This document shows, piece after piece, positions 35,892-55,444 of a DNA stretch of 64,000 nt (position 1 is the first letter of the stretch; each line of letters begins with the position of its first letter). Under the pieces are notes generated by a model, which made no database searches, had not been told where the DNA came from, and saw only the letters and a program-made list of their open reading frames with translations. The stretch spans positions 1 through 64,000 of IMG/VR virus record IMGVR_UViG_3300009152_000030; one strand, given 5' to 3'. This stretch comes from a virus. The position numbers were made by a program, and so were the translations under genes.

Positions 35892-36281
35892 TTAGAACGG
35901 ATCAATGTCCGTTACAGTTTCGATGACAGGCTCTGACGACTCTGCCTTCTTAGGGGCCTCACCGTACCGAACTACATCAGCGATGATCTCCGTGATCCAC
36001 CGACGCTCACCTGCTTCGGTCTTGTACTCACGAGTTTCACTGCGACCATCGATTTCTACCTGATGACCTTTACCGAGATACTTTGCAGCATTCTCGGCAT
36101 TGGTGCCAAAGACAACGACGCGATGGTATGAAGGCTTGGAGACCTTCTCACCCTTGGCATTTGTGTACCGATAGTTGGTACAGACGTTGAGAACCGCGCG
36201 CGACTGCGACGATTCGGAGCTCGTAAGCTCGGGATTCTTGGTAAGACGACCACGGACTCTAGACTCATTAAGATCTTGCAT
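35892..36281 (-). CDS. ssb: Single-stranded DNA-binding protein
   Basis: LN..GRLTKNPEL, HRVVVFG..AEN..KYLGKG, TEIIA, and a bacterial SSB-like DIDPF tail. Confidence 0.92.
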   Translation of the reverse strand: MQDLNESRVRGRLTKNPELTSSESSQSRAVLNVCTNYRYTNAKGEKVSKPSYHRVVVFGTNAENAAKYLGKGHQVEIDGRSETREYKTEAGERRWITEIIADVVRYGEAPKKAESSEPVIETVTDIDPF

Positions 36282-36347
36282 ATCTATCTCCTTTCCGTTT
36301 TTCTACGGACAATTGGTTACTAATATTAGTAAATTTCACACAAGAAA

Positions 36348-36361
36348 GGGGCGATAGCCCC
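36348..36361. repeat. Conserved hairpin GGGGC-GATA-GCCCC, copy 1 of 4
   Basis: Identical 14-mer at 36348, 36900, 39869 and 40556. Confidence 0.85.
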
Positions 36362-36755
36362 TCTAGCGGCTACACAGGGCCCATGCTGCAACTACTGGCC
36401 AAAACATGCTGGCACAGAAATACAGGATTGTATACCAGACAGGAACTACAATGCTTGCAGTTCCATTGGCATGGCTCATACTAAAAGACGCACTGCTCAT
36501 CAGAATGTTTCGCATTGGTTCTCCTTCTCTTGGTTATCCAGAATAGTTCTGGCTGCTTTCATAAGTGTATTGATACGCTCAGAACCCCATGTCAGTTCAA
36601 GTCTTGCAACTAGATAACTGATGTTGTCTGCGTCTCTATAGTCAACATTGAACAGATTCGGGTCAGGGTTATACACAGGATCTCCTAATTGAGGAATTTG
36701 ATCAACCAGACTAACTTAAACATCAAACCTAATAGGAACAATAGGAATCGTACTT

Positions 36756-36899: not shown

Positions 36900-36913
36900 G
36901 GGGCGATAGCCCC
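36900..36913. repeat. Conserved hairpin GGGGC-GATA-GCCCC, copy 2 of 4
   Basis: Identical 14-mer preceded by AAAGAA. Confidence 0.85.
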
Positions 36914-39847: not shown

Positions 39848-39868
39848 TACCAATTCTCACCGAAAGAA

Positions 39869-39882
39869 GGGGCGATAGCCCC
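39869..39882. repeat. Conserved hairpin GGGGC-GATA-GCCCC, copy 3 of 4
   Basis: Identical 14-mer preceded by AAAGAA. Confidence 0.85.
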
Positions 39883-40007
39883 TCAGGATTTGTACTGTAG
39901 CGGAGTGGGACCCATAATTATTTGGGCCTATTTTCACTCAGCTGGCCCAGGAGCCGAAACCCCCCGACGCCCGTTAGGGCGAAGGGGGGTTGAGCTGGAC
40001 CTGCGAC

Positions 40008-40430
40008 CTAGAAGGTGCCGTCGTCCGCAGTGGCCGTCTCGCGAAGCGCCGCAAGGGCCTCCGCAGCGGCATCTGCACCAGCGGATGAGGCCGCGGGAGC
40101 CGAAGCGCCAGCGGGGGAGCCAGTCTTGACGACGACGTTGGCGAGGATCTTGACGGCGAAGCCCTTGGAGCCATCCTTGCGGAGGAACTCTTCGTCTTCG
40201 GGGGTTCCGTCCACGAACACGGTGTCGCCCTTCTTGAGGATCTTCGCCATGTTCTCCGCGAGTGCGCCGAAGCACACGACGTCCCGCCACTTCACGACAG
40301 CGACGCCCTTGACCTTGCGGTTGACAGCGACGCGCATGGCGCAGATGGAAGTTCCCGACTGGCCCGTCAGGAGAATAGGGTCGGCTCCAAGGTTGCCGAC
40401 GACCTGAGTACGCTCAAAGCCCATGCTCAT
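40008..40430 (-). CDS. ssb: Single-stranded DNA-binding protein (second, GC-rich copy)
   Basis: VVGNLGADP, RVAVN, WRDVVCFGALAEN..KKGDTVFVDG; acidic tail DDGTF. Confidence 0.9.
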   Translation of the reverse strand: MSMGFERTQVVGNLGADPILLTGQSGTSICAMRVAVNRKVKGVAVVKWRDVVCFGALAENMAKILKKGDTVFVDGTPEDEEFLRKDGSKGFAVKILANVVVKTGSPAGASAPAASSAGADAAAEALAALRETATADDGTF

Positions 40431-40555
40431 GGGTGCGCTCCAGTGTGGAGAGAAGGACCATCCCTCTCTCCGCACAAACAAGGGCCGTTAGGCCCTCTGG
40501 CGATCCATCTCGTTGGATCAACGGGAGCCAGGACATCTGGACTCCGCAGAAAGAA

Positions 40556-40569
40556 GGGGCGATAGCCCC
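40556..40569. repeat. Conserved hairpin GGGGC-GATA-GCCCC, copy 4 of 4
   Basis: Identical 14-mer, followed by GAGCGAAGCGAG at 40571 and again at 40621. Confidence 0.85.
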
Positions 40570-40664: not shown

Positions 40665-40703
40665 AAAGAAAAAAATAGCCCACCCATGATGGGCAGGCTA
40701 TTC
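40665..40703 (-). terminator. Intrinsic terminator after the polymerase operon
   Basis: AATAGCCTGCCCA-TCA-TGGGTGGGCTATT followed by TTTTTCTTT. Confidence 0.75.
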
Positions 40704-40704
40704 T

Positions 40705-40998
40705 CTAGTTATTGCCGTTCTTCTTTCTGTTTGCTTCTAGCATTTCCAGAAGACCGCGAGCCATCTTTGCATTGTGCTCATTCTCCTTTTGGGTAACCCA
40801 TTTTGGAGGAGGATCTTTGATGTCAAAGAAGATTTGAATTTCATGGCGAAGTACATAGTAACCTTTGTTGATACGTAAATCAACACAGATCACAACTTCT
40901 CCTGCTCCAACCAACGTCCCGTCCCATGCCCTAATAGTGCCGGTTGGCTTTGGTTTGCGGTTTGTTTCAATGATGTGGCCATTAAATGACTTTTTCAT
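40705..40998 (-). CDS. Hypothetical protein
   Basis: ORF between the polymerase gene and the terminator. Confidence 0.6.
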   Translation of the reverse strand: MKKSFNGHIIETNRKPKPTGTIRAWDGTLVGAGEVVICVDLRINKGYYVLRHEIQIFFDIKDPPPKWVTQKENEHNAKMARGLLEMLEANRKKNGNN

Positions 40999-41033: not shown

Positions 41034-44000
41034 CTACTTCTTTGCAAGGTCGTTCGGGTTGATGATAATCATCGGACGATTGACCTTCTTGGCGTAGTTG
41101 ACACAGTTGGATGTGCCACTCGGAGAACCATCCCAGATTGCGACAACCGCCTCGCAGTTATCAACCATCCAGTAGTTCCGTGCGTGGAGACACTTCTCTT
41201 TGCCTGCAAGGTCGTAGCCTTTCTTATTGACAAGCACAACTTGATGAGCAAGAGCAAGCATCTTCTTGTAACGCATCTTAGCTTCGTCACCCTTGAAGTA
41301 ATCACCATGGTCGCTGCAAGGACGAGCCACGATGAACTTGAGGCCAAGCTTGTGAGCCTCACGTGCGGCATCAGTGTCAACGCCAAGAGCACCACCAGTA
41401 ACGACGATGATCTCACGAGTTGCACTGTACTTGGCAATGGCACGCTTTAATGCATCTGCGATTGCATTCTTTACAGCAACACGCAGAGGATGATTCTCGT
41501 CATAGCCGCCAATCTTTTCGGGGCGATGACCAGTGAATGCAATCCTGTAGGGCTTTGCTTCCACGGCAACAACAGGCACAGCAGGAGCAGGCTTGGCTTC
41601 AACAGCAGGAGCGTCAACCGGGACCCAATTGACATCTGCCATGTTCTTAGGCTGCCACTTGCCGTTGACCATTACAAGTTGTACAGGCTGTGCCGCAGTG
41701 TACGTGCCTTCAAGTACTTCACTGAAGATTTGAGTCTCAGACTCTTCCTCGTCACTGTCGTACTCGCTAGCATACTGCTCCAGCTCTTCAGCGCTGACTG
41801 GATTCTCAGAACCAAAGGCATCTTCAAAGTTGAAGTCTGCCATGCCTGCGCTCTCCAGCATCTTGTCGTAGTCGATATTCTCAGAGACAGAGATATCGAA
41901 GAACTCCTTCTCGGGAGGAGGCTCGGGCTTGACCGGCTCTTGACCCTTGAAGGTCAGCCAGACGAAGTTACGAGTGTAGGTCTTGCCGTTGGCACCATGA
42001 CCGTCACGCTTCTCCACTTCGCTTGCCTCAACGGTAGCACCGCTGAAGAAGTTGTTGAGAGTACCGTGGTAGCCCATCATGCCGGCAATCTGCCACTGAG
42101 TCTTGCCCTTGAAGGCACCGTTGTTCTCGAATGCCTTGCGCGTCTCGCTGGTCTTGCGGAAGACCAAGTAAGCAACTGCGGCGGCGCGATGGTCCTGGTC
42201 AGGGTTACCGCGCTGTCCACCGTATGCAAGCTGAATGCGGTTGTCGCTGAGGAGCTGCTGGATGTTGAGGCCAACAAGCGACTGAGGATCAACAGTCTTG
42301 CCATCCTTGCTCTCACGAATGAGGAAGGCGGCGCGAACGTCGGCAGCAAGAAGCTTATCCTGAGTCTTCTTCACGGCAGCATCCTCAAGGAACTTGCAGA
42401 GAACTTCTGCGTAGCCCTTGTAGTTACCGGTCGAGGCAAAGTACATCTTGCGGCTGTAACCACCGCTGGAGGTAAGCTCACCCTGCGCGTCGATGGCGTC
42501 AGAGTCGATGATCTTTGTCTTGTTGCCTTCTTCGTCATCAAGGAACTCGACCTTACCCTTGCCCATGGACAGAGTAATAGGCTTTTCCGCAGACGTACCG
42601 AGAGCGGACATCAGCTCAGAAAGCACGAACATTTCGTACTTGTACTCAGCCTTATCCTCGTAGACCTCTTCGAAGAGAGGCCAGAGATCCTCGTGACGTG
42701 CTGCGAAGGCTGCATGGATGGGCTTCTGAGCGTAAACCCGACGAAGGGTCTTGAGCTCTTCAGCGTTCATCATGTAGCGAACCTTGTCGATTTCCTCGTA
42801 ACGATGCTTCATTGCCTCAGGCACAGTCATCATGTGACCATTGTCCTGGCTGTAGCGATTGACCGCATGATACTTACGGAACATGAAGGAGCCGAAGGTC
42901 GTGAGATTGAACTCACCCTCGTATTGCTCCTGCTCATCCCGGTAGTGCTTGCTGATCAGCTCATCAAGCTCATGCGAGTGCTCTTCAAGGAACGCCTGAA
43001 GATTGGAGGTCAGGAGAGTAGCAGTCTGAGTGCTGTGACCCTCATCGATGAACGACTTGAGGTTCGAGGTCATCGTCTTCCAGTAGCGTGTGAAGCTGCG
43101 GATGATGGGATGCTCAACCTTGACAGACCGACCATCTGCCGTGACAACCGTCTGACGAAGGCTCTGGCAGATCTTAGCGGTCATCGGGATCTTGCCCTCT
43201 TCGTCCTTGAACAAGGCAGGAGCAATGATGTTCTCGCCCGTGATCTCGGAGATTTCTCCCGTGTAACGCACAGCAACAGGTGCAGTTACAAGCGAAAGAA
43301 GGCTGACACCAAGCCGCTTGCGCACAGGCTTAAGGGCCGTCATCTTGCTAGGCTTAGCATCGGGATTCTCACGCATCGCATTGCGGTCGTTGAGTACCCA
43401 GCTGACAGCAATCATCGTCATGATAGCGTCGATGTTGTGCCATGCACGCCAAGCGCCGGGGAAGTCAGTGCCGCTCTGAGCAGCATCGACCACCAGCGAG
43501 ATCTCACCTTCCATCATGCAAGCTGCAAGAAGGGCGGATGGAGTCTTGACTACCGACGGCAGAATGATCAGGTCAGCAAGCAGATAGCTGCCGAACATCT
43601 GAGCATTTGCCATTGCGCCAACGATGGGCATGAACTCGTTATCACCAGGAAGGTGAATCATGTCCCACTTCTCTTCAGCAGTCTTGTCGGCAACCGAAGG
43701 ATCTGCAGGCTGAGCCTTCTCAGCAAGGGCCGTAATGTTGTACTTGATCAAGCCAGAAGGCGAGACAGTCTCGACCGTCTTGACATCAAAGTACGACGAC
43801 AGCAGCTTGTGACCATTCGGAATGGTGTTCACAAGATCAAGCTTTTCAGGAAGCTTAGCAAGGAAGGTGTGTGCCTTCTCGTAAGTATCCTGGACCTGCT
43901 GAACGGTGAACTGGCTCAGCTTGTAGTTACGCAGGTTCATAGAACGCAGCGCAAGCAAGCCAAGCTTACCGCACAGGAAGAACGCCTTGTCGTCAGCGTC

Positions 44001-45527
44001 ACCGCCGTCCATGCTAACAAGGACAGCCTTCTGCATGATCTCCGTGCTGCCGAAGTATGCAGTAGCGTGCAGGAACATGTCGTCCTTAAGGACAACATAG
44101 ATAACCCGCACATCGACCTTAGCCGAAGTAGGCCAACGAGCCGCAGCGCCAAGGCTATCCCGATGGTTGACGGCAAGCTCCTTCTCGTTCTCACCCTTCA
44201 CATCATGGATGTTAAGAGCAGGAACGTTGAGGTTCTTCGCAGCTTCTGCCGTGATAGCAATTGCCGCAAATCCCGTCTTGGCAAGGATCTGTTCCGACTT
44301 GGCGTTGAACGCTTCCTCGATCTTTGCCTTGCGGTCAAGCTCAGCCATGATGAGAAGACGACGCTTCTTCAGGCCAGCGGTTTCGTTTGCAAAGGCACCC
44401 TGCTTCTCCTCATGGAGCCACAGGTCACGGAACATACGCCAGACAAGAGCGCGGGGATACGAGGTAAAGCCACAAGGGCCGTCCTTTGTAACCGCGTTGA
44501 TGCGAAGCTTGCTCTGCGTAACGTCTTCGCTGACACTGTTGACTAGAGTAGTCACAGTAGCAGGAATTGCGCCAGGGTGAACACCAAGGCTAAGAAGCAT
44601 CTTGGTGATCTTTGCCTTGAATGTTGAGGACGTTTCCGTTGCCTCAAGGACGTCGCCATCGAGACCCTTAAGGGCATTCTTGACGTAGTCATCCCAGTGC
44701 GAGATGTTCCAGTCAATCATCTCGTTGAGGATCGCATGGAACTTCGGGTCGTTGAGCACCTGACCAAACAGGGCGCTCAAGTTCTGGACGCCGAGAAGGA
44801 CACCAGGCTCAGACTTCATCTCACCAACGGTCGGCTGCACCATAAGCGCAACATCGGGAGAGAGATCAGGCTTGAGATCCTGCTTGCCTTCGGAGCTCAG
44901 CAGGAAGACATGGGGCGGAAGCCAAAGCTTGACCGCACCCATTGCGCCCTTATAGTACGCTTCGAGCTTAACCACACGGCGAACCTGCATGCCCTGCGTC
45001 ATGGGGCCAGGGGTGAGCTCTGCAGTGCCCATGTAGTGGACACCGTCCTGGATTGCCTTGTAGGCAGGATCCAAGTCAGCCATGTCTACAACCTTGCCAG
45101 TTGCAGATACGATGGCGCTGTAGGTGGCCGTCATCATGGAACGCGCATACTTGCGGCCCTTCTGAGCGGTCTTGCTGGTATACCCAACAGAACCCACAAG
45201 CTTTGCCTTCAGCGCCTTAGGCACCATCAGCGTCTCCATGCTGCTAACAGCAAAGAGGGCAACGTGACCGTCCGGGCATTTCTGCCCTTTCTCAACCACA
45301 GGGTGGTCGAGGAGGCTTTCAAAGCCCGGAAGATCGGAATAGGGGCTCTTAACCCCGGAATACTCGAGATGCTCTCGATAGCTACGGTACATAGTACCCT
45401 CCTTGTCAGTAACCAAAATGGTTACGTTCTGTTTCATGTTTTCTACCATTCGCCCATATCCATTGTAACAACAGGAAGAGTCGGAGCAACTACTGATACT
45501 GTCTCCATCTTGAAGCCAGAGTCCCAA
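41034..45527 (-). CDS. Putative single-chain two-barrel RNA polymerase (YonO/cellular RdRP-like) fused to a C-terminal YspA-type SLOG domain
   Basis: Ordered motifs QDG, QVR..YKG, RWP, GGDADD; SLOG: IAFTGHRP, GGALGVD, RNYWMVD, WDGSPSGT. True start probably 45449 or 45437. Confidence 0.65.
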   Translation of the reverse strand: MGLWLQDGDSISSCSDSSCCYNGYGRMVENMKQNVTILVTDKEGTMYRSYREHLEYSGVKSPYSDLPGFESLLDHPVVEKGQKCPDGHVALFAVSSMETLMVPKALKAKLVGSVGYTSKTAQKGRKYARSMMTATYSAIVSATGKVVDMADLDPAYKAIQDGVHYMGTAELTPGPMTQGMQVRRVVKLEAYYKGAMGAVKLWLPPHVFLLSSEGKQDLKPDLSPDVALMVQPTVGEMKSEPGVLLGVQNLSALFGQVLNDPKFHAILNEMIDWNISHWDDYVKNALKGLDGDVLEATETSSTFKAKITKMLLSLGVHPGAIPATVTTLVNSVSEDVTQSKLRINAVTKDGPCGFTSYPRALVWRMFRDLWLHEEKQGAFANETAGLKKRRLLIMAELDRKAKIEEAFNAKSEQILAKTGFAAIAITAEAAKNLNVPALNIHDVKGENEKELAVNHRDSLGAAARWPTSAKVDVRVIYVVLKDDMFLHATAYFGSTEIMQKAVLVSMDGGDADDKAFFLCGKLGLLALRSMNLRNYKLSQFTVQQVQDTYEKAHTFLAKLPEKLDLVNTIPNGHKLLSSYFDVKTVETVSPSGLIKYNITALAEKAQPADPSVADKTAEEKWDMIHLPGDNEFMPIVGAMANAQMFGSYLLADLIILPSVVKTPSALLAACMMEGEISLVVDAAQSGTDFPGAWRAWHNIDAIMTMIAVSWVLNDRNAMRENPDAKPSKMTALKPVRKRLGVSLLSLVTAPVAVRYTGEISEITGENIIAPALFKDEEGKIPMTAKICQSLRQTVVTADGRSVKVEHPIIRSFTRYWKTMTSNLKSFIDEGHSTQTATLLTSNLQAFLEEHSHELDELISKHYRDEQEQYEGEFNLTTFGSFMFRKYHAVNRYSQDNGHMMTVPEAMKHRYEEIDKVRYMMNAEELKTLRRVYAQKPIHAAFAARHEDLWPLFEEVYEDKAEYKYEMFVLSELMSALGTSAEKPITLSMGKGKVEFLDDEEGNKTKIIDSDAIDAQGELTSSGGYSRKMYFASTGNYKGYAEVLCKFLEDAAVKKTQDKLLAADVRAAFLIRESKDGKTVDPQSLVGLNIQQLLSDNRIQLAYGGQRGNPDQDHRAAAVAYLVFRKTSETRKAFENNGAFKGKTQWQIAGMMGYHGTLNNFFSGATVEASEVEKRDGHGANGKTYTRNFVWLTFKGQEPVKPEPPPEKEFFDISVSENIDYDKMLESAGMADFNFEDAFGSENPVSAEELEQYASEYDSDEEESETQIFSEVLEGTYTAAQPVQLVMVNGKWQPKNMADVNWVPVDAPAVEAKPAPAVPVVAVEAKPYRIAFTGHRPEKIGGYDENHPLRVAVKNAIADALKRAIAKYSATREIIVVTGGALGVDTDAAREAHKLGLKFIVARPCSDHGDYFKGDEAKMRYKKMLALAHQVVLVNKKGYDLAGKEKCLHARNYWMVDNCEAVVAIWDGSPSGTSNCVNYAKKVNRPMIIINPNDLAKK

Positions 45528-47419
45528 CCCTCACGAGTTGATGTATGCTTTGAGTTGCAGTCTGTGTAGTTAAGCATTGCACGTTCTTCGGCAGTCATCA
45601 TCCGATGAGGATTAGCTTTTGCAATCTCAGGATGAACCAACATAAAGCCGCACTTGGTCTTCATCCAGTCGTAACCGAAGTCGAAAAAGAGCTTTATCGC
45701 CAGATCTAGTCCGGCTAATTGCTTCCTAGACGAACCCTTCTTGTTGTCCGATACATCCGTCTGCACCATGGACAAACGAAGATTCATGTCGATTTTATCG
45801 AACATGTGAACCTGAGCTCGCAACTCAGAGTTTGCCATTGGTAGTTTTGTCTTCAGCGAGTAGACAGCACGCGAGGCTTTGCTTTCTTGAAGCTCTGCAT
45901 GGTACCGAGCCTTGAATTCCGGGAAAGACAGACCAGCAAGGTGCGGAAGCATCCCATATTCTGTTGTTTCCCACTTTTGACGATACTCGTCTTCGAAGTA
46001 CCCCCAATCCAAGTCCGGACGGTTGCAGTCAGTCCAAAGGGTACCACTCTGCTCATTCGCAAGATTATGCAAGTCATAAGCATACATACCATTACATTCA
46101 CTAGCTTTGAAAAGCTGCAGATACCGTAGCATATGATAATATGCTTGGCTCGTGCTGTCCACATTGGTCAGATAGAACCTTTGGTACCTTTTGTTCTGAG
46201 GTACAGCCTGTTCTACAAAGCCAGTTGCGGTTACCACAACACGATTAACGAGTTCGACTCTAAATACACCCTTGTCGCACAGGTATGTATTCCGAACTGC
46301 TCTTCCACAGGCAAGGTTTTGAATGCAAGTCTTACCAGTTTTTGACCAAGTAAGAACTTCCTCTCTTTTGCCAAAGTGAGCAATCTCGCCACTTTCGTAC
46401 ACGTCAGTGGTTTTTGCAAACTCTGTAATGCGTTCGATTTCCGATACCCATTCGTTATAGGTCATCTTCCGCATCTTGTACCAGGACGTAAGGATCATTC
46501 TGATCCACTTCTCTTCAGGGCCATTGGGGTTGAGTTTGGCCTCTCCAAACACCTGCTTGGCAAGTTGCTCTTCTTGGCCATCCCAGCGGTTTTCATTGCC
46601 AAAGCCCCAGTCAGAGACACCACCGCCAGCAGTCAGGACAAAGCCAAACGAGAACTTATTCCCGTTGCCATCGGTGCCCGTCTTGGCATCTACTGTTTTA
46701 TCAACAATATAGCCGTGGTATTGTCCAGACTTCATCTGCTGTTGATAGGTGCCACCACCAACGCAGAAGTGCCCCTTGTAGCGTGAATTGATGCTCTTGC
46801 ATTCATCCCACGCCTGCTGGGGATCAACCCAGCGGAAGTAATACGTCTCCTTGTTGAAGAGAGCCGTTACTTCACAGGTCTTGAGGGATGCCTCGCCGAT
46901 GACCGCGCCCAGGAACTTGACAGACAAGCTATTCACAAGCTCAACTGTGCTAGTGTACCGATTGCGAACAACGTGCCATTCGGCAGCTGACCATGTTTCA
47001 ATACAATTCTTCTTCTTGGCCAGCTTGGCAATGTCCTGGAAGAAGGTCTCCCAGGTAGGCTCATGAGTAACCTCCTTGAACCAGGCCATCATTTCCTTAT
47101 TGGCAAGGAGGATACTGGCAAACTTGTTGAATGCCGCAACATTCATGACCTTTACCTTGATCACCTTGGTCCGGCCCGTCGGCGGCGACCACTTAACCTG
47201 ACGCTCAGAGCCAAAGCACCGAATGCGGTACATGTCAACTCCCTGCTCCTTTAGAGCAATGATGCGCTTACGCACACTCATCAGGTTTGACAGCGAGAAC
47301 CCAGGCATTTCAGGCTGGATCTCATTGGCAATATATTGCCGCTGTTCGAGACGCATTTGCTTGGCCTTCATAAGGGCCTCCTTCTGTTCGGTGGTCATGT
47401 TTTTGGTCATCTTACTCAT
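45443..47419 (-). CDS. Hypothetical protein (658 aa) overlapping the polymerase start
   Basis: Long ORF; AAGGGG SD. Confidence 0.75.
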   Translation of the reverse strand: MSKMTKNMTTEQKEALMKAKQMRLEQRQYIANEIQPEMPGFSLSNLMSVRKRIIALKEQGVDMYRIRCFGSERQVKWSPPTGRTKVIKVKVMNVAAFNKFASILLANKEMMAWFKEVTHEPTWETFFQDIAKLAKKKNCIETWSAAEWHVVRNRYTSTVELVNSLSVKFLGAVIGEASLKTCEVTALFNKETYYFRWVDPQQAWDECKSINSRYKGHFCVGGGTYQQQMKSGQYHGYIVDKTVDAKTGTDGNGNKFSFGFVLTAGGGVSDWGFGNENRWDGQEEQLAKQVFGEAKLNPNGPEEKWIRMILTSWYKMRKMTYNEWVSEIERITEFAKTTDVYESGEIAHFGKREEVLTWSKTGKTCIQNLACGRAVRNTYLCDKGVFRVELVNRVVVTATGFVEQAVPQNKRYQRFYLTNVDSTSQAYYHMLRYLQLFKASECNGMYAYDLHNLANEQSGTLWTDCNRPDLDWGYFEDEYRQKWETTEYGMLPHLAGLSFPEFKARYHAELQESKASRAVYSLKTKLPMANSELRAQVHMFDKIDMNLRLSMVQTDVSDNKKGSSRKQLAGLDLAIKLFFDFGYDWMKTKCGFMLVHPEIAKANPHRMMTAEERAMLNYTDCNSKHTSTREGWDSGFKMETVSVVAPTLPVVTMDMGEW

Positions 47420-49854
47420 TGATTTACCCCCTTTGCCACTTTGGCACAGTTAACAATTCCATGATTAATCTTCCGGCTAACTTGGATGTCATTGCGCAGT
47501 TCGGTCTTCTTACCGATCACTACGTCAATGAACAAGTCAGCAGCCTGTTCAATCGTGAGCGCTGTAGGCGCAGGATTGACCGCAGGAAGCAACTCGAACA
47601 GTCGCAGAAGCAAGGAAGGACGCGGCTCTGCGTCGGCCATAGGCACAGTTGCAACCACAGGCTTGCGGAACTTGGCCACAGCCTTGAGGTCAGACATGGT
47701 CACCTGGGCATGCTCACGTGCAGGCGCAGCAGGTCGACCGAACTTCACCACAGCGATCTCCTTCCGGAGGTTGTGAGGAAGCGAGACGAACGAACAGCCG
47801 GTGCCCAGACGGGGCTTGGCGGGTGCGTTGGCGGGTGCGTTGACGGCAGGCTTGACCTCAGCCTTGGGAGCGGCCTCAGGCTTGGTCATGACGACCATAA
47901 CCTTGGCAGCAGCAGGCTTAGCAGTCGGCGCAACCGTGGTGACCGTCGTGATGCCAGCCTTGGCCTTGATCACGGCCTTGACCTTTGCCTTTGCCTTCGC
48001 AGCCTTGGCCTTGCGAGTTGCCGCCTTGGCGCTCTTGGCAGCGCGAGCCTCCGAGAGCTCCTGTGCCTTGCGTGCAGCGATTGCAGCGCGGATTGCCGTG
48101 ACCTTGGCCTTGACGGCCTTCTTCTCGGCGTCCACCTTGGCGAGGACTGCAGCCTGTGCAGCCTTTACCTCGGCTTCGACAGCAAGACGCGCAGCCTTGG
48201 CAGTGGCACTCTGGTTGGCGATCTGGGCAGGGTTCTGATCAGCCCAGCGCACCCCGACCTCATTGACGTTCCAAAAACGGCAGAAGGAGCTGAGCCGTGC
48301 GGCAGCAGCACGACGAGCGGTGCGAACGGTCTTGTCGAGGGTCTTGACCCCCGTGTTCGCCGAACGAGGCCCGAATGCTGCCTTGACGAGGCGGGTGGCA
48401 TCCAAGTAGTCGTTGTTACGGACGACCTTGACCTTTGCGGCGCTCTTGACCACAGGCTTTGCCACGAACGGCTTGGCCTGTGCACGAAGGATGGGAAGCT
48501 CGTTGCGCTTGGCCTTAGCCTTGCGCTGAGCAACCTCGATCTTCACCGCAGTCTCGGGGCGAGTGTAGCGGTTGGCGCGGTTTGCCTTCTTGGCGAGCAG
48601 CTTCCGAAGGGCAGTGCCAGGTCGATTGTTCGCCGGCCCCGTTGCTTTCTCTTTCTGGCGCTGACCAATGAGGCCAATCGACCAGCCGCCGACGTGACCG
48701 CTCTTGCGGCCACCCCCAACCTTGTAGCTCTCGGTGTAGATGTATTGGACCTCGGGGCGGGGGACCGACACGCCGTGGAAGCGGATGCCGGCACGCTTGC
48801 GCCAGAGGTGAAGGAGGCGACGGCGAGACCGGCGGGACATACGAGACTGACGCATGACGAGATCCTTTGGAGGACGGGGGGATTTGGACTTGTTACGCAT
48901 GACGATATCCTTGGGTGGACGGGACTTCTTGTTCTTCATGGGGCGCTCCGTGTAGTGCGGGTTTCCGGTGTCGCTGATGCCACACATTGCGGCAATCTTG
49001 ACATCGTGGGTAAGCATGCGGATGAGTGCGTCGAGCGCGATCTTCATTGCCATTGTAGTCTCCAGTGGCGGTGGGGGTGTTGGTTCAGGTTGGTTCACAA
49101 TCTCACTCATCTTGTCCTCCTCTAGCACATAGACACAACCAGGACCACCTTTTTTGGCATCCCAGTCAATAAGGCGCACATGATCCCAAGAGCATTGCCC
49201 CTGAGGAATCTTTGAACGACGAGTATGACCAACAATAGCAAGCCCGTGCTTACCCTTGTAATCTTTGGCCCAGAAGTTATCAGGGTCAGTGTTATCAACA
49301 AGCTCGATCTGGGCTGCAGTCGGCTTACCTTTGACAAACCTAGGAGGCAATTTACCAGCTGGAAGTTTGGCATGGACAGCCGTCCAGGTTGTGTCCTTGA
49401 CCCATAGAGGCCGAGAGCGCAACCAGACCATATCGTCCTCCGTAAGTAGAGCACGAAGCTTGCACCACTCATTCCAGATGCGTACATAGTCTTCGTCTGC
49501 CAGGTTATAGTGCAGGCTCCAAGCCTTTGTCAATTCTTCCTGGCTATTGCCAAAGAAGAGAGGATACAGCTCATGGTTGCCCAAGATGAGCTCCGAGCCA
49601 GAGGCACGAATGATGTCAAGGCAATCCTTGGCACCCTGTGCGCCACCTTCCCCATCGAAGATATCTCCGAGGAAGATAATGTCTCTGCCGTTTGCCATCT
49701 CAATGGCAGAAGTGACGAGAGAGGGACGTGCGTGAATATCGCCAACGAAAACCTTTTCCATTTTAATCTCCTTGGTAGGCCTATCAATCTTCATATCATT
49801 CATTGGAACAACCTTTGTAATAGTACAAATAGATACATTCATTTGCTTATCCAT
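47416..49854 (-). CDS. Calcineurin-like metallophosphoesterase fused in frame to a long Lys/Arg/Ala-rich region
   Basis: GDIH, LGDIFD, GNHE, VHA, GHT; then a Pro linker and ~550 basic low-complexity residues. Confidence 0.8.
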   Translation of the reverse strand: MDKQMNVSICTITKVVPMNDMKIDRPTKEIKMEKVFVGDIHARPSLVTSAIEMANGRDIIFLGDIFDGEGGAQGAKDCLDIIRASGSELILGNHELYPLFFGNSQEELTKAWSLHYNLADEDYVRIWNEWCKLRALLTEDDMVWLRSRPLWVKDTTWTAVHAKLPAGKLPPRFVKGKPTAAQIELVDNTDPDNFWAKDYKGKHGLAIVGHTRRSKIPQGQCSWDHVRLIDWDAKKGGPGCVYVLEEDKMSEIVNQPEPTPPPPLETTMAMKIALDALIRMLTHDVKIAAMCGISDTGNPHYTERPMKNKKSRPPKDIVMRNKSKSPRPPKDLVMRQSRMSRRSRRRLLHLWRKRAGIRFHGVSVPRPEVQYIYTESYKVGGGRKSGHVGGWSIGLIGQRQKEKATGPANNRPGTALRKLLAKKANRANRYTRPETAVKIEVAQRKAKAKRNELPILRAQAKPFVAKPVVKSAAKVKVVRNNDYLDATRLVKAAFGPRSANTGVKTLDKTVRTARRAAAARLSSFCRFWNVNEVGVRWADQNPAQIANQSATAKAARLAVEAEVKAAQAAVLAKVDAEKKAVKAKVTAIRAAIAARKAQELSEARAAKSAKAATRKAKAAKAKAKVKAVIKAKAGITTVTTVAPTAKPAAAKVMVVMTKPEAAPKAEVKPAVNAPANAPAKPRLGTGCSFVSLPHNLRKEIAVVKFGRPAAPAREHAQVTMSDLKAVAKFRKPVVATVPMADAEPRPSLLLRLFELLPAVNPAPTALTIEQAADLFIDVVIGKKTELRNDIQVSRKINHGIVNCAKVAKGVNQ

Positions 49855-49871
49855 GACGTTCTCCCTAGGCA

Positions 49872-50042
49872 CTAGTGGATACGCCGGCCAATGCGGCCGA
49901 TGCGGGAGTGACGGAAACGGCGAGCCACTGCCTTCTTGACAGCAGCCTTTTCAATAGCCTTGGCCTCAGCGTTAGCTGCAACCTTGGCGGTCATCTCCCC
50001 CTTAATAAGGAGGAAAATTAGGACAAACAGGACGACAATCAT
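49872..50042 (-). CDS. Small membrane-anchored basic peptide (56 aa, not in ORF track)
   Basis: MIVVLFVLIFLLIKGEMTAKVAANAEAKAIEKAAVKKAVARRFRHSRIGRIGRRIH fills the gap exactly. Confidence 0.55.
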   Translation of the reverse strand: MIVVLFVLIFLLIKGEMTAKVAANAEAKAIEKAAVKKAVARRFRHSRIGRIGRRIH

Positions 50043-50043
50043 G

Positions 50044-51195
50044 TTACTTCTCCCAGTTGCTGATAGTCTCCTGCCCGTATTTAAGCAGGAACTGTTGATA
50101 AAGGTCCTTGTACCATTCCATGTTTTCCTTGGCGTAAGCCAGGTTTACCGTATCCTTGCTGCGGTCCAAGCTACCCCAGCAGTCAGTTTGGCCAATGTAC
50201 AAGGCATCATTGTACTTGACTTGAAAGTCTTCAGCATCACCTGTGCCAAGGGCTTGGCGCTGAGGGCTTTCCGCATAAGATACGAAGCCAATCACTTCAT
50301 CGCCGGCCATCAAAGGCCCACCAGAGTCACCATGGTCAGGAGAAACTTCAAGGCTGAGGCTGGCAGCACAGATAAAGCGTTGGTTGCTAGCGCCTGCAAT
50401 GTACCTCTTGTAGGTATCAACAAGATTCTTGAAGATAACCTCGGGGCTTTTCAGACTTACATCCTCAAGTGCTTTTCTGGCATCAATGAATGCCCATCTC
50501 ATGTCATTCTGCTCTTTCATGCTAGGCGTACCCTTCTTCATGTGGTCAAAGACCTGCTCAAAAGGCACATAACCCCACATGTCTGTGGTCTTACCCCACC
50601 AACGGAAGTCAGTGCTGCACTCAAGACCAATCTCATAGAGATCTTCCTTGATTTCGTTAGGATAATGGTCAGCCGGCACAACGATATCGCCAGCGTTTTC
50701 ACGGTAACCGTTACGTGTGCAGTGCTCTGCCGTGTAGATCTTACCTTTCCACTTCCATGCAGTGCAGTTCCCGCTCTCATCAAGGGGGCCTTCATTTTCC
50801 CTGGTGTTGACAGGACCAATTCCAGGGTGGATGTTGTTCTCTGCCCGGTACTTCTCTTCCAGGAATTCTTCCACTTCCTGAACAACCTCGTAATAGTCGC
50901 TGTTAGCAACCCACTCTGCCTGACGGATTTCCTCCTTCCGTGCCGCAGCAGCTTCTTCCTGGCGAAGGCGGGTGTTATTACCCGTCATGGTCACAAAGAT
51001 ACCAGCAAAGGCTGCAAAGATTGCAACCATTGCCAGCACAAAGAGGATGTTCTCGCGGCGGTCTGCCTTCTTCATCTTGTCCTCCCTCTCACGGTACGCC
51101 TTAAGCTCGGCCTGTTGCATTTCTTCCCAGTTGTCCATGACCTTCTCCTTGTTTGTTGAGTTAGCAGCAATGTCTAGAACAGTAACGTTATTCAT
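50044..51195 (-). CDS. Membrane-anchored trypsin-like (S1) serine protease
   Basis: CTAW...YTAEHC (His), GDSGGP (Ser); TM segment ILFVLAMVAIFAAFAGIFV. Confidence 0.75.
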   Translation of the reverse strand: MNNVTVLDIAANSTNKEKVMDNWEEMQQAELKAYREREDKMKKADRRENILFVLAMVAIFAAFAGIFVTMTGNNTRLRQEEAAAARKEEIRQAEWVANSDYYEVVQEVEEFLEEKYRAENNIHPGIGPVNTRENEGPLDESGNCTAWKWKGKIYTAEHCTRNGYRENAGDIVVPADHYPNEIKEDLYEIGLECSTDFRWWGKTTDMWGYVPFEQVFDHMKKGTPSMKEQNDMRWAFIDARKALEDVSLKSPEVIFKNLVDTYKRYIAGASNQRFICAASLSLEVSPDHGDSGGPLMAGDEVIGFVSYAESPQRQALGTGDAEDFQVKYNDALYIGQTDCWGSLDRSKDTVNLAYAKENMEWYKDLYQQFLLKYGQETISNWEK

Positions 51196-52531
51196 GAGTC
51201 CACCCCAGCATTTCAATGATGTCAAAGACATTCGTGTAATCGCTAAAGATATCCGAGTAGCTTGACGCCATTTCATCAATGAACGGCGATGCAACCGGCT
51301 TATTGTCAACCATAGCAAAGCAAGAGACCTGATAGTTGCTATGAGCTTCCGGATAGAAGTCATCAAACATCTGGTTGTCGGTCCGAACGAAAAACGAGAC
51401 ACTACCAATGACTTCGTCACCAAGCATGATGGGGCCACCAGAGTCACCCTTCTTGATGCTATCTTCCGCCACAGAAGAAGCACAGAGATACTCTTGGCTT
51501 GTGTAGTGCTCTTTGATGTACTTCAACTGGTTGTAGAATTTGTTGAACGCTGCATGTGCTTTTTCTTTTGCTTTCTTCGTATTATCGCTATTAGTCTTCA
51601 TGCTGTTCTCTTCGATTGTGTACTTGTAATCGTTAAGAGCGGCAATAGCCTTATACTTAGAGTCAATAAGCTCTTGTTGCATTTCGTAAGGAGCACCAAG
51701 ATAGTTTCTTGTCTTCTTGAAGATCTGCTCCATAGGAATAGTTACCCACTTATTGGTGGTTGTGCCCCACCAGCGGATATCAGGGCTGCACTCTGTACCT
51801 TCCTTGTAGAAGTCACCAGAGATAGTGTTATCGGCTGTTGACTGCTGGACGCGGTCTGTGTTGCCGTGCTTTTCCAGGTAGTCATTGCAGTGCTGGATGG
51901 TGTAGGTCTTACCGTTCCATTTCCATGCGCTGCAGGTGCCGTACAGAACTTCACCGTCCTTGTATACAGGAGACTCAATTTTGCCATAGGCCTTAGCAGT
52001 ATTATCAACCTGCTCATAATTAGTAACAGCATTAGCGGTCGACTGCGCATTTTCAATCTCAGGCTTAGCATCGGTACCGCAAGCCGTAGTGATTACGAGG
52101 AGAAGGAAGGTTGCAATCTTTGCCATCATTTCCGCATAGTTAGCTTTCACAAGAGCCTCGTTAACCTTCAGATTATGGAAGGCGTTGGTTGCAAGTGCAA
52201 TGCTGCGCACATCGTCATGGTACTCAACGTGGATGAGGATATCAATGGCAGTAAATGCCAAGGGGGCAAGTGCGAGAGTGCACACGACCATATCCTGGAA
52301 CGTAGCCACAAGGGCGTAGGGAATGAAGAGAGCTGCAGTGCAGACAATGCTGAACGCAAGCCCAATGGACCTCTTGCTAACGACAAGCATGACGGACTCC
52401 TTGTTGGCAACAAACTTGTTCATGACAGACCCCTTCCAGACAGCGGTGATGATAGCCAGGATGGCAAAAATGACGAATGCAATTGACATAGCAGACTCCT
52501 TGTTGACGACAGAATTGTCGATGGTGTTCAT
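51188..52531 (-). CDS. Membrane-anchored trypsin-like serine protease, paralog
   Basis: CSAW...YTIQHC, GDSGGP; several TM segments and an internal lipobox-like TTAC. Confidence 0.75.
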   Translation of the reverse strand: MNTIDNSVVNKESAMSIAFVIFAILAIITAVWKGSVMNKFVANKESVMLVVSKRSIGLAFSIVCTAALFIPYALVATFQDMVVCTLALAPLAFTAIDILIHVEYHDDVRSIALATNAFHNLKVNEALVKANYAEMMAKIATFLLLVITTACGTDAKPEIENAQSTANAVTNYEQVDNTAKAYGKIESPVYKDGEVLYGTCSAWKWNGKTYTIQHCNDYLEKHGNTDRVQQSTADNTISGDFYKEGTECSPDIRWWGTTTNKWVTIPMEQIFKKTRNYLGAPYEMQQELIDSKYKAIAALNDYKYTIEENSMKTNSDNTKKAKEKAHAAFNKFYNQLKYIKEHYTSQEYLCASSVAEDSIKKGDSGGPIMLGDEVIGSVSFFVRTDNQMFDDFYPEAHSNYQVSCFAMVDNKPVASPFIDEMASSYSDIFSDYTNVFDIIEMLGWTHE

Positions 52532-53280
52532 TAGTACACCTTTACGATTTCGCAGGCGAAAAGGTCGATAAAGTCAAAGTTGTCATCCTTTGTGCCAATG
52601 GAACGGTTGCGAGCGAGGCTATAGTCGTCGCAAAGACCAAAGCGCTGAGCGTACCCTTCGAACAGGTAGTCACCGACGCGAGAACAAGCAGGACAACCGC
52701 CTTCCCAGTCAAGTCCAGTCGGCTTCCAGTCGCGAAAAGGAGGAGACTTTCTGATTTCTCGTGCAAGCATAATTTCAGGCTTGTAGATTTCAACTGCATA
52801 GTTGACCTCAACAATCCACTCATGCTTGATACCTTCAGAGCAGATCAGGCCGTTGTCGTTGTCCATCATAAGCTCAGCAAGCTCACGAAAGATAACAGGG
52901 TCATTGCAACGATCAAGATTGAACTTAATCGGGAATCCTTCCTTCATGACTTTGATAGTGGAGATCGGAACGTCCGCGATTACCTGTACAGCACTCGAAG
53001 AGTGCTTCTTGGTAATGTATGCAGCCCAGAAAGCATCCAGATTGGCATTTGCCGGAACAGCCCAAGTGCCCATCACTTTCTTTCCTTCCGGGTGAAGGTG
53101 ATTGGTGACTTCCATTGCGGGAACGCCATCCTTAGCAATGATGTCGCCAAAGTTAGGCGCAGTCCAGTGAATAACACGCATAGTCTTCATGGTTTCCTCC
53201 ATCTTAGCCGAAACGGCGATTTCTTCAGTAATCTTATTCATGACGTTCACCTTGTTGGTGTTGAGGGTGTTGATTTTCAT
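52531..53280 (-). CDS. Hypothetical protein
   Basis: ORF with several candidate starts; C-terminal CPAC. Confidence 0.65.
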   Translation of the reverse strand: MKINTLNTNKVNVMNKITEEIAVSAKMEETMKTMRVIHWTAPNFGDIIAKDGVPAMEVTNHLHPEGKKVMGTWAVPANANLDAFWAAYITKKHSSSAVQVIADVPISTIKVMKEGFPIKFNLDRCNDPVIFRELAELMMDNDNGLICSEGIKHEWIVEVNYAVEIYKPEIMLAREIRKSPPFRDWKPTGLDWEGGCPACSRVGDYLFEGYAQRFGLCDDYSLARNRSIGTKDDNFDFIDLFACEIVKVY

Positions 53281-53284
53281 TGTA

Positions 53285-55444
53285 TTACCAGACATCGTTG
53301 TAGCTATCGGCAGCAAGCTTAGCCTTGATCTGCGCCACAACATGGTTGATATTGAATTCACGCTGGATAAACCAGGTGTTAGAGATTTTCATGGCCTCAA
53401 TCTGACCCGGGGTCTTCTTGGTCTCCGAGCTTTCGCCGTCACCAAACATACCAATCAGAATAGGACGGTGCTTGCTACTGCGGTTGTTATCGCCCATACC
53501 GAAGTCAACAACACCAGCACTGTTCGTAAGGATAACGCCAAAGTTATCCCATTCGCCGTTGATCTGGATGTCTGCAATCCAGGGGATATTCGTACCATTG
53601 AGGAACTTCTCCTGGTAGTAACCATGGCTCTGCTGAGTGCCATGACCGGTGCAGAACTTACCCGTGTACTTGCTGTTGATCTGCTGAGACTCATTCCACA
53701 TACCAGCGGCATCCGTACGACGAATACGAAGAACCTGATCGTAGCCAGCAGCAAGAATCTTCTCAACCTGCTCAGTGTCAGCTACGTCACAGCTCTTGAA
53801 TTCTTTGCTACCAAACTTGAAGCCAACAACAACGTCAGTCGTAAGCTTGCAGATTGCAACTTCCTCAAGAGCAAAGATAGGCATCAAGTCTTCCTTGAGC
53901 TGCTTGACCTTGTTATAGCGCTGAGCATAAGTCTTCCACTGATTAGCCTTCCAGAGGTTTTTCTCAGCATTCATTTCTTTGCTGCACCAGAAGTTTTCCT
54001 CAGTCTTCATTGCATGCATTTCGTCAGCAAAAGCAGCGTCTTTGCTCATAGCAACGAGCAAACCACCTGTTGCCGCGTCATTAAGCGGCAAGCACCAGCG
54101 GCTAAAGAATTGAATGGTCTTCTTCTCAATGAGCAACTTTGCCGCTTGCCACTCAGCCTTCGTGAGAATACGATAGGCCTGCCAGTTGTAACCATGCTGC
54201 CAATTTGTTTGGCAGATAAAGTGGTAGTATTCATTTTCGCTATTTCTCATGGCTTTTTCGAGAGCGCGAGCAAATTCTGAGAACTTGATGGCCAAATTGT
54301 TATAGGCCGCAGCATTACGATTGCTTTCGTCAACGTTAGCCAGCATTAGCCAGTACGAACGGATGCCTTGAATACTAGCATTCTTGTAGAAGAAACTGTA
54401 GTCCGCAGACTCTTGAAGATTCTTTTCAGCCTTGATAAAGGACTCAAAAGTAATCTCTTCCTTGAGTTGCGTATCAAACATAGTCCAGAGGGCATTAATA
54501 TCGGTAGCGTTTTCGATCGATTTGATAAAGTCCTGGTACTTCATCGTCTCTGCGCTCTGCTTACAGCCAAGTTCTGCTTGCATCTCAAGATTTTTGCGCT
54601 GTCTTTCTGCGATTTCAAGGGAAAGCCGGGCATTGCGTGCAATTCGCTGAGCTTCGCGCTCTTCCTCCTGGCGGCACCACGCCTCATGCTCAGCAGCTTC
54701 ACGCTCAAGACGAGCAATGCGCTCTGCCTGATCCAACGCCTGCTGACGCGCATATGCAATGTTACGCTCACGACGCTCCATCATGTAGAAGGCGTCATGC
54801 ATGCGCTGCTGCTCACTCTCAGCAGCCATCTTGCGCACTTGCTTAGCAAGCTTATCAGTCTTCTGCTTGTTCTCATACCAGAACATAGCAACAACTGCAG
54901 CAATCATTGCGACAACCATGGCAATCAACGCGATAACAATCATGATCCTATCCTGAGTCATGTTTGCACTAGCAATGGCCAACACAGGTACAATACTAAA
55001 CATCTTATTCTCCTCGTTCTTCATGACATCCTCTTCATTAACGTCGGAATTGACGTTGTTATTGACATCCTTCTTAACCCAAGCCTGCTGTGCAGCAAAG
55101 GCCATGATAGCCTCCATGCTAGCAGTGCTCATCACAGGCATCTCGCTGTCATCCTCGTACAGGGCCTCAATCTCAGCCTCAAACTGCGCATCTTCGGTAA
55201 CATCACTGTACACCGGGTGATTATTATTGAGGTCAACCTCATACTCATTCGTATACTGAATCTTATTCGACATGGCGTCCACCTCGTTATCAGCCTGGTA
55301 GCTGGGGTTATTGCTATTGAAAAGAACGTTGATCAGGCTAGTCATGACAGTCACCTTGTTGTTGCTATGAGTGTTATTATTCATAGTCTTGTTATTGATG
55401 ATGGTGTTGGTGATGGTGGTAGGGGTTTGTGCGAGCGTGCACAT
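53285..55444 (-). CDS. Hypothetical membrane-anchored coiled-coil protein
   Basis: TM segment IMIVIALIAMVVAMIAAVVAMFW, coiled coil; many internal SD-ATG sites. Confidence 0.7.
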   Translation of the reverse strand: MCTLAQTPTTITNTIINNKTMNNNTHSNNKVTVMTSLINVLFNSNNPSYQADNEVDAMSNKIQYTNEYEVDLNNNHPVYSDVTEDAQFEAEIEALYEDDSEMPVMSTASMEAIMAFAAQQAWVKKDVNNNVNSDVNEEDVMKNEENKMFSIVPVLAIASANMTQDRIMIVIALIAMVVAMIAAVVAMFWYENKQKTDKLAKQVRKMAAESEQQRMHDAFYMMERRERNIAYARQQALDQAERIARLEREAAEHEAWCRQEEEREAQRIARNARLSLEIAERQRKNLEMQAELGCKQSAETMKYQDFIKSIENATDINALWTMFDTQLKEEITFESFIKAEKNLQESADYSFFYKNASIQGIRSYWLMLANVDESNRNAAAYNNLAIKFSEFARALEKAMRNSENEYYHFICQTNWQHGYNWQAYRILTKAEWQAAKLLIEKKTIQFFSRWCLPLNDAATGGLLVAMSKDAAFADEMHAMKTEENFWCSKEMNAEKNLWKANQWKTYAQRYNKVKQLKEDLMPIFALEEVAICKLTTDVVVGFKFGSKEFKSCDVADTEQVEKILAAGYDQVLRIRRTDAAGMWNESQQINSKYTGKFCTGHGTQQSHGYYQEKFLNGTNIPWIADIQINGEWDNFGVILTNSAGVVDFGMGDNNRSSKHRPILIGMFGDGESSETKKTPGQIEAMKISNTWFIQREFNINHVVAQIKAKLAADSYNDVW

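Follow-up and report, generated by a model that had tools for sequence, protein, structure and literature searches.

A phage protein with a predicted single-chain two-barrel RNA polymerase core, a shortened DxDD catalytic loop and an optional SLOG domain

The minus strand of the window (the 64,000-nt stretch analysed here, from the 174-kb genome of an uncultured phage) encodes a large protein (41034..45527) that is best read, on the evidence of a structural model, as a member of a phage-specific family of single-chain two-barrel RNA polymerases, DNA-dependent and predicted to be active. The fuller account that we favour, in which this active enzyme is made early, stays out of the virion, starts at hairpins and carries a SLOG domain as cargo, draws on the model and on analogy with known systems, and we consider it likely as a whole. 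The open reading frame has 1497 aa as called, and the motifs IQDG (45030-45053), MQVRR (44976-44990), YKGAM (44940-44954), ARWP (44130-44141) and GGDADD (43977-44012) follow one another as in the preliminary description, with the acidic/Pro linker also described there. Translation probably begins with the ATG at 45449 (residue 27, giving 1471 aa), because the Atlas record and two of three close homologues start there. An antisense frame of 1018 aa (41490-44546) overlapping the gene is taken as a shadow frame.

The polymerase core occupies residues 40-790 (43158..45410, minus strand, as are all parts of the protein). It contains the motifs on the side of the DPBB-B barrel (D161-G, V-x-R184, K193-G, E-x-K215 and Q248; 44781..45053), which are invariant in 14 homologues, and the DPBB-A barrel (residues 352-523; 43959..44474), defined by structural alignment to DPBBs, which carries R464-x-P466 and the catalytic loop D507-G-G-D510-A-D512-D513 (43977..44012; family pattern [DE]-G-x-D-x-D-D). 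Residues 791-1197 (41937..43157) are kept in homologues without SLOG and are probably a clamp or accessory region. The linker (41544..41936), where variable domains insert in homologues, and the YspA/YpsA-type SLOG domain (41046..41543) complete the chain.

The AlphaFold model covers the N-terminal 750 residues (the core, residues 40-790) with a pLDDT of 82.5. All 14 of its Foldseek matches in the PDB with E<0.001 are single-chain two-barrel RNA polymerases, namely QDE-1, RDR2, gp64/gp96 of phage P23-45 and crAss gp66, and the single-chain two-barrel reading of the preliminary description is thus supported by the model. In VIA comparisons, ZmRDR2 and QDE-1 reach Z 11.4 (414-442 residues aligned, rmsd 5.1), followed by gp62 (Z 9.7) and gp96 (Z 9.6), with other folds well below. 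The whole-chain alignments to QDE-1, RDR2 and gp62 cover model residues 2-697. For DPBB-A, which was aligned separately, 86 of 86 residues superpose on designed and natural DPBBs (rmsd 2.2), so that the double-psi beta-barrel sought in the predicted structure is present there; DPBB-B is seen only within the whole-chain alignments. Together, the model and alignments give the architecture of the superfamily, two DPBBs sharing one active site. The best structural matches in BFVD and the Atlas are viral proteins, P23-45 gp64 among them.

By sequence, the core stands apart. The RdRP profile PF05183 fails to match anything in the genome at E 10, while the Bacillus subtilis control is positive; Pfam, PDB sequence and profile searches and PHROGs likewise give no match for the core, nor do tblastn against 50,697 annotated phage records or a word-index search with the core alignment. 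ESM Atlas feature searches return nothing for either the core or the “YGDHGPY” insert found in homologues, an IMG/VR search with one homologue (P0010) is empty, and no sequence kinship is seen with the non-virion polymerases resembling P23-45 gp64. Because it has neither a PF05183 match nor a DxDGD loop, we place the protein outside the YonO/cRdRP sequence family; of the earlier label “YonO/cRdRP-like”, the fold and residue order hold, being shared with QDE-1, but the family membership does not.

The most distinctive feature of the core is its metal-binding loop. In the window protein and all 14 homologues (15 of 15 sequences) it reads G-x-D-x-D-D, and DxDGD occurs in none; the Gly is deleted family-wide, as first described for this protein, and the loop is one residue shorter than DxDGD. 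The three Asp of the canonical DxDxD signature are therefore present with another spacing, and an acidic residue at 507 is nearly invariant. Across the homologues (21-95% identity, 751 alignment columns) only 28 columns are invariant, with all predicted catalytic residues (D161, R184, K193, K215, Q248, R464, P466, D510, D512 and D513) among them, which argues that conservation of the active-site constellation is beyond chance. Within the QxR..KG motif noted earlier, V-x-R and KG are conserved, but the Q of “QxR” is not. The Asp and two Lys that the superfamily places in DPBB-B (D161, K193, K215) and the R-x-P of DPBB-A (R464-x-P466) are all found. Mapped by order and spacing, D161, R184, K193, K215 and Q248 would be the equivalents of QDE-1 D709, R738, K743, K767 and Q797; the distance from RxP to the first Asp is 46 residues (45 in QDE-1), and that between the two Lys is 22 (24 in QDE-1). 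The dN/dS of 0.12-0.18 indicates purifying selection on the core.

QDE-1 and RDR2 (PDB 2J7N, 7Y7R, 7W84; PMC9508822) provide the best whole-chain structural match, and QDE-1 R962-x-P964 and Asp triad also have invariant, similarly spaced counterparts here. They differ in having DYDGD rather than DxDD; the window protein lacks a PF05183 match, is phage-encoded and is only 11-12% identical to them. On the QDE-1 precedent, D510, D512 and D513 of the shortened loop would bind the catalytic Mg, perhaps assisted by the acidic residue 507, D161 would help to hold a second metal, K193, K215 and R184 would bind phosphates, and R464-x-P466 would select ribonucleotides. P23-45 gp64 and its P74-26 counterpart gp62 (PDB 8F72, 8F5M; 10.1101/2022.12.01.518664) share the single-chain two-barrel fold (Foldseek E 4e-5 to 6e-5), but gp64 has DxDxD in ∼600 aa, whereas the window protein has DxDD in ∼1100 aa plus cargo, with 9-11% structural identity. 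SPbeta YonO and YonO-like polymerases (PMC5467207, PMC2919709) are similar as single-chain phage enzymes with cRdRP-type motifs; YonO, however, retains the DxDxD triad, belongs with PF05183, transcribes late genes and is not among the PDB matches. The crAss-like phi14:2 gp66 (PDB 6VR4; 10.1101/2020.03.07.982082), which transcribes ssDNA, is likewise a two-barrel phage polymerase with a non-canonical loop (DFDID). In gp66, which is packaged in the virion, the Gly is replaced and the five-residue spacing is kept, whereas here a residue is deleted and the gene lies outside the virion operon.

QDE-1, YonO and gp66 all depend on an aspartate triad with DxDxD spacing; this spacing has been termed invariant in two-barrel polymerases (PMC2919709), and the literature searched describes no RNA polymerase with a DxDD loop. 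One might therefore suppose that the shortened loop marks a catalytically dead protein or a non-templated nucleotidyltransferase, acting as a scaffold for counter-defence domains. We regard this as very improbable: the active-site constellation stays invariant down to ∼21% identity, including in members without SLOG, and gp66 and PolD show that activity is compatible with variation of the loop, PolD departing from DxDxD and still counting in the two-barrel superfamily.

The SLOG domain, described earlier as complete and YspA-type, is a full-length match to PF06908 (45.4 bits, cut-off 27.7, E 1e-11, profile positions 1-168 of 168). DxDD is universal among the homologues; the SLOG fusion is found in half of them, being absent from 7 of 14 (P0006-P0012), and the SLOG-less members retain the whole constellation. 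Other homologues carry DUF4326, HIRAN or PIF1 alongside SLOG, and insertions in the linker comprise DUF4326 and the unnamed “YGDHGPY” domain. Iyer and Aravind reportedly described SMF/DprA-like domains on cyanobacterial RdRP-like RNA polymerases in 2012. The available text of PMC9503650 describes sporadic SLOG fusions to nucleic-acid enzymes and phage YpsA-clade fusions that similarly pair a YpsA SLOG with DUF4326; RNA polymerase is not among the partners given there, whereas here SLOG is fused to one. The same text predicts that phage YpsA-type SLOGs act on ADP-ribose or NAD derivatives, not on ssDNA. The preliminary description took SLOG for a nucleotide- or ssDNA-sensing module of the polymerase. 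A sensor integral to the enzyme, turning it on or off in response to ssDNA or host NAD/ADPr signals, would agree with the repeated appearance of the fusion on different branches of the tree (P0001-5, P0013, P0014 weakly, and L026), with strong purifying selection on SLOG (dN/dS 0.07-0.10) and with the sensing role that PMC9503650, in the available text, proposes for fused phage SLOGs. We nevertheless consider a core sensor unlikely, because half of the homologues lack SLOG, which forms part of a variable cargo region at the C-terminus, behind a long acidic linker; a further SLOG-DUF4326 gene stands alone in locus L008. SLOG is more likely optional cargo with a counter-defence role: a detachable module that would most likely act against host defence signals derived from ADP-ribose or NAD, and would at most tune the polymerase.

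Upstream, the same GC-rich operon (45443..55480, minus strand) encodes paralogues of 658 and 731 aa, a metallophosphoesterase and two trypsin-like proteins; homologues of several of these form a single 2836-aa polyprotein with the polymerase (P0005). AT-rich repeats (55620..55720, minus strand), conserved in distant relatives, separate this early operon from the divergent virion operon and are possibly a genome-end or packaging region. The polymerase would be made early as a non-virion enzyme, because its gene sits in the early region and not in the virion operon. From this position, it would transcribe the next early block, with two SSB genes, a tRNA and small ORFs. A better candidate for a virion RNA polymerase is a protein of the tail operon (98642-105661 of the genome), in which D[FY]DGD is invariant among 10 homologues, with Q-N-P ∼57 residues upstream; judged by these motifs, it may be such an enzyme. 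When the profile of the DxDD core is set against that of this protein's folded part, no kinship is seen. P23-45 has a similar arrangement, with an early-region polymerase gene and a second polymerase candidate in the tail operon, but the window phage differs in carrying genes for a tail sheath and a sigma factor.

Downstream, the polymerase operon ends at an intrinsic terminator with a 17-bp stem and T tail (40670..40706, minus strand). About 100 nt beyond it lies a mini-hairpin on the template (plus) strand with a C-GATA-G loop (40556..40569), a candidate promoter, and then one with a C-GTTA-G loop (40481..40496), both preceding SSB1 (40008..40430, minus strand; PF00436, E 3e-17). Further C-GATA-G mini-hairpins on the plus strand lie ∼85 nt past the SSB1 terminator and ∼20 nt before an ATG (39868..39883), before a small ORF with an RBS (36900..36913), and before SSB2 (36347..36362; SSB2 at 35892..36281, minus strand; PF00436, E 1e-21). 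An RNA array is present at 39.1-39.5 kb. Genome-wide, seven C-GN(N)A-G hairpins occur, and six of these lie in the 5 kb that follow the polymerase gene. In the regions downstream of the gene at six loci, 25 such hairpins are on the template strand and one is on the coding strand (0.26 expected); they recur near SSB genes in five lineages, with variable stems and a constant loop rule, the loops having 3 or mostly 4 nt. Locus L024 has a different hairpin and L026 none in 5.7 kb. Most lie a short distance before start codons, SSB genes lie alongside in most loci whose downstream sequence is long enough, and no sigma-70-like site is found within 6.3 kb on the hairpin-bearing strand.

These template-strand hairpins, with a C:G closing pair and loop bases 5'G and 3'A, resemble N4 early promoters (PMC4496689), and we regard them by analogy as candidate N4-like promoters; a nearby SSB adds to the likeness, as does, in the window clade, an A-rich spacer on the side of the gene. 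N4 differs in its T7-like virion polymerase as reader, host SSB and 3-nt loops, as opposed to a candidate reader, phage-encoded SSBs and mostly 4-nt loops here. Plain terminators are disfavoured, because real terminators precede the hairpins, U tails are absent in three lineages (L008, L010, L012) and the RNA loops are not UUCG or GNRA. In the window clade, T-rich tracts follow the hairpins and one hairpin makes up a terminator's loop. A caveat for the promoter reading is the long terminator-like hairpin that follows SSB1 (39955..39990, minus strand), whose loop is also C-GTTA-G on the template strand. In distant relatives, the polymerase gene is preceded by a second motif, rich in AT, which is not found ahead of the operon in this genome or in the window clade; in those relatives, the two motifs may represent AT-rich and GC-rich promoter classes like those of P23-45 (10.1101/2022.12.01.518664).

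Judging from gene position, we tentatively take SSB-assisted initiation at these hairpins as the most likely mode of action of the DxDD polymerase, and the proposed role in an early transcription system is to that extent plausible, in an early region and not in the virion operon. That an active Mg site built on the DxDD loop goes together with sigma-free initiation at SSB-presented hairpins is somewhat more doubtful. Alternatively, the tail-operon protein could be the reader of the hairpins, as a virion polymerase is in N4 (PMC4496689), leaving the active DxDD enzyme to use other promoters or to transcribe middle or late genes like YonO. The invariant D[FY]DGD and Q-N-P, weak matches of the tail protein to single DPBBs only (Z 5.3-6.0; one of Z 5.4 with rmsd 2.5 over 73 residues) and co-occurrence of the two genes in three phage records speak for such a division of labour. 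We find it rather unlikely, however: the early region does not begin with the hairpins, which follow the polymerase gene and its terminator; the different AT-rich motif of relatives precedes the polymerase gene, and a pre-existing enzyme is therefore needed there; and the tail-protein model, built from eight sequences, is of low confidence (pLDDT 60) and has no Foldseek match. A primase-like role is also conceivable, the enzyme making RNA on ssDNA for replication, with the hairpins marking origins or priming sites on SSB-coated DNA, and with HIRAN, the PIF1 helicase and a DprA-like SLOG coupling it to forks. RdRP-like enzymes of selfish elements have been proposed as primases (PMC3417536), and PIF1 and HIRAN on homologues and the adjoining SSB genes would suit this role, but most hairpins lie just before start codons on the template strand of genes, and the closest characterised phage relatives (gp64, YonO and gp66) are transcriptases, making it improbable.

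Searches for two-barrel RNA polymerases rely on the DxDxD loop, which is treated as their sole invariant signature, so that DxDD enzymes escape motif and Pfam screens. A DxDD family with all other catalytic residues in place would show an alternative construction of the Mg site. If the hairpins are promoters, the family offers a testable enzyme-promoter pair with natural stem variants, and insight into promoter recognition, which a published study of YonO leaves open, by single-chain two-barrel polymerases, relatives of the eukaryotic RNAi polymerases. Hairpin initiation by the DxDD enzyme, if true, would mean that a polymerase of cellular-type fold has independently reached the N4 promoter mechanism, as part of a phage programme with two polymerases in which promoter stems and enzyme vary together.

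The DxDD polymerase gene occupies positions 41034-45527 of the minus strand as a 1497-aa open reading frame fused to a SLOG domain, and its motifs fall in the order and at the positions given in the preliminary description. Translation more likely starts at the ATG at 45449 (residue 27), to judge from the sequences, because the Atlas record and two close homologues begin at that residue. A 1018-aa antisense open frame lies under the gene (41490-44546, plus strand) and is probably a codon-use shadow. The first 1200 residues have no match in Pfam, PHROGs, PDB sequences or annotated phage genomes, and the homologues are all of metagenomic origin: three are close (62-92% identity), ten are more distant (23-35%), and one additional family member was located in an IMG/VR record. 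The polymerase core has a dN/dS of 0.12-0.18.

In a 14-row alignment of these proteins, 28 of 751 columns are invariant, including D161-G162, V182-x-R184, K193-G194, E213-x-K215, Q248, R464-x-P466, G508, D510, D512 and D513. Mapped by order and spacing (PMC9508822) rather than by superposition, the invariant residues appear to correspond to D709, R738, K743, K767, Q797, R962-x-P964 and the D1007/1009/1011 triad of QDE-1. The catalytic loop reads G-x-D-x-D-D in all 15 family sequences and DxDGD in none, with an acidic residue three positions before the first loop Asp in 14 of the 15. The Gly-less loop originally proposed is thus a fixed character of the family, but the Q of the proposed QxR motif varies among homologues.

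The AlphaFold2 model of residues 40-790 (pLDDT 82.5, pTM 0.76) resembles single-chain two-barrel RNA polymerases, which account for all 14 Foldseek matches in the PDB with E <0.001 (QDE-1, P74-26 gp62, P23-45 gp64 and phi14:2 gp66). An independent structural aligner placed ZmRDR2 and QDE-1 at the top (Z 11.4, >400 residues aligned, rmsd 5.1), followed by gp62 and gp96 (Z 9.4-9.7), and superposed model residues 313-484 on isolated DPBB domains with an rmsd of 2.2. In the model, the DxDD loop sits between a helix and the final strand of the barrel, which is where the catalytic loop is described to lie. Both the two-barrel fold and the loop conservation anticipated in the preliminary description are borne out by these structural matches and by the invariant loop.

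The DxDxD signature has been termed invariant (PMC2919709; 10.1101/2022.12.01.518664). Two known enzymes depart from it, the crAss RNAP with its spacing kept (DFDID) and PolD with two Asp retained, and a full-text search of an incomplete literature library found no two-barrel RNAP with DxDD. The Pfam RdRP profile has no match anywhere in the 174-kb genome. The suggested YonO/cRdRP-like identity therefore holds as a likeness of predicted fold and motifs and fails as family membership: the enzyme would act like YonO, gp64 and QDE-1, yet we do not file it with those families, since the RdRP profile finds nothing and the loop is without precedent in the literature search. With the model as guide, we regard these proteins as a real, conserved and structurally supported family of predicted single-chain two-barrel RNA polymerases with a shortened catalytic loop, and the DxDD protein is quite probably an active DNA-dependent RNAP.

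Residues 1329-1494 form a complete YspA SLOG (E 1e-11, over the Pfam cut-off), as had been described. This domain is carried by homologues P0001-P0004 and P0013 and by the member at locus L026, gives a weak match in P0005 and P0014, and was not found by domain search in P0006-P0012. The polymerase tail is otherwise variable, with DUF4326 in P0003, a PIF1 helicase in P0014 and HIRAN in the L026 protein (L026:7636-14166; 2176 aa), where the GGDDDD loop is followed by SLOG, an unnamed YGDHGPY domain and HIRAN. A domain of ~130 aa with the YGDHGPYIE motif, which has no match in Pfam or Atlas, comes and goes in the linker or C-terminus of P0002, P0004, P0008 and the L026 protein. A separate SLOG-DUF4326 gene lies close to the polymerase at locus L008. 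SMF/DprA-like domains are reportedly fused to cyanobacterial RdRP-like enzymes. PMC9503650 records sporadic fusions of SLOG to nucleic-acid enzymes and predicts host ADP-ribose signals as the targets of viral YpsA SLOGs and DUF4326. Most simply, the SLOG would be counter-defence cargo that an early-expressed protein can carry or lack; a role in regulating the polymerase is possible. The fusion matters less than other features of the enzyme.

The polymerase is the last gene of a GC-rich minus-strand operon, divergent from the virion genes, in a 174-kb record (the window is its first 64 kb) that encodes a major head protein and tail sheath. An AT-rich repeat lies where the early and virion operons diverge (window 55620-55720; L006:780-911; L012:7348; L026:6400-6520); it is conserved in distant relatives, and possibly marks a genome end, a packaging site or a promoter. 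One relative has homologues of several operon genes joined in the 2836-aa polyprotein P0005 (L012:10001-18511), a single chain that combines metallophosphoesterase and trypsin-like parts, a homologue of the 658-aa neighbour, the polymerase and a SLOG-like domain. The 658-aa and 731-aa operon proteins (45443-47419 and 53285-55480) share a paralogous domain of ~200 aa (26% identity, E 2e-15), and two tandem proteins of this early operon (50044-52531) have trypsin-like GDSGGP segments and N-terminal hydrophobic stretches. The virion operon includes a 1318-aa protein (57175-61131) whose N-terminal part is exonuclease-like and which also has a staphylococcal nuclease domain. At L008:10494-11720, a Poly(A) polymerase/CCA-adding family gene (PF01743) directly follows the polymerase-PIF1 fusion. 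Tandem repeats of ~47 nt with hairpins (39126-39490), without an Rfam match, are conserved in L024 (10138-10417), a distant relative that has no SLOG.

A strong terminator (40670-40706) follows the polymerase gene, and downstream of it are GC-rich mini-hairpins that show the pattern stem-C-GN(N)A-G-stem on the template strand. The 174-kb genome has seven, all on a single strand and six of them within 5 kb of the polymerase gene; in six loci, 25 are on the template strand versus one on the coding strand (0.26 expected from shuffles). The loop rule is constant across lineages and the stems vary. The hairpins have the closing pair and loop bases required in N4 promoters (PMC4496689), the copies in L008, L010 and L012 have no U tails, two copies in the window directly follow real terminators and precede SSB1 or a small ORF, and the template-hairpin strand has no sigma-70-like site in the 6.3 kb examined. 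Against a promoter reading, the window-clade hairpins bear T-rich tails, one of them is a terminator loop, the L024 hairpin has a different loop, and no C-GN(N)A-G hairpin occurs in 5.7 kb downstream of the L026 polymerase. That the DxDD enzyme reads the mini-hairpins is a tenable proposal, somewhat less likely than not.

At loci L006, L008, L009 and L024, every small gene upstream of the polymerase has in front of it an RNA-type terminator and a common AT-rich motif, TACTTAAA-x-AGTAT followed by GGGCTAA, in up to 15 copies (arrays at L006:1400-7700, L009:300-8600, L024:60-4800 and L008:1700-2300). The motif, a candidate pre-early promoter, was not found upstream in the window's clade. As promoters of the polymerase gene itself, these sites would have to be read by an enzyme already present. 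A 2339-aa tail-operon protein (98642-105661 of the record; L015:1643-8662) shares three phage records with the DxDD gene, and Q-N-P, with Gln for the Arg of R-x-P, and D[FY]DGD are invariant in 10 homologues. Since its model is poor and its DPBB matches are weak, it is only a candidate virion RNA polymerase. The phage also encodes a sigma-70-family factor (156110-157207; PF04542, E 2e-21), which may add a third layer of transcription control. In P23-45, AT-rich promoters are served by a virion RNAP, whose targets include the gene of a second, non-virion RNAP that in turn uses GC-rich promoters (10.1101/2022.12.01.518664), a layout paralleled here by the AT-rich motif, the tail-operon protein and the DxDD polymerase. 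From this parallel we infer that the DxDD enzyme would be the early polymerase outside the virion, and the likelier of the two to read the hairpins.
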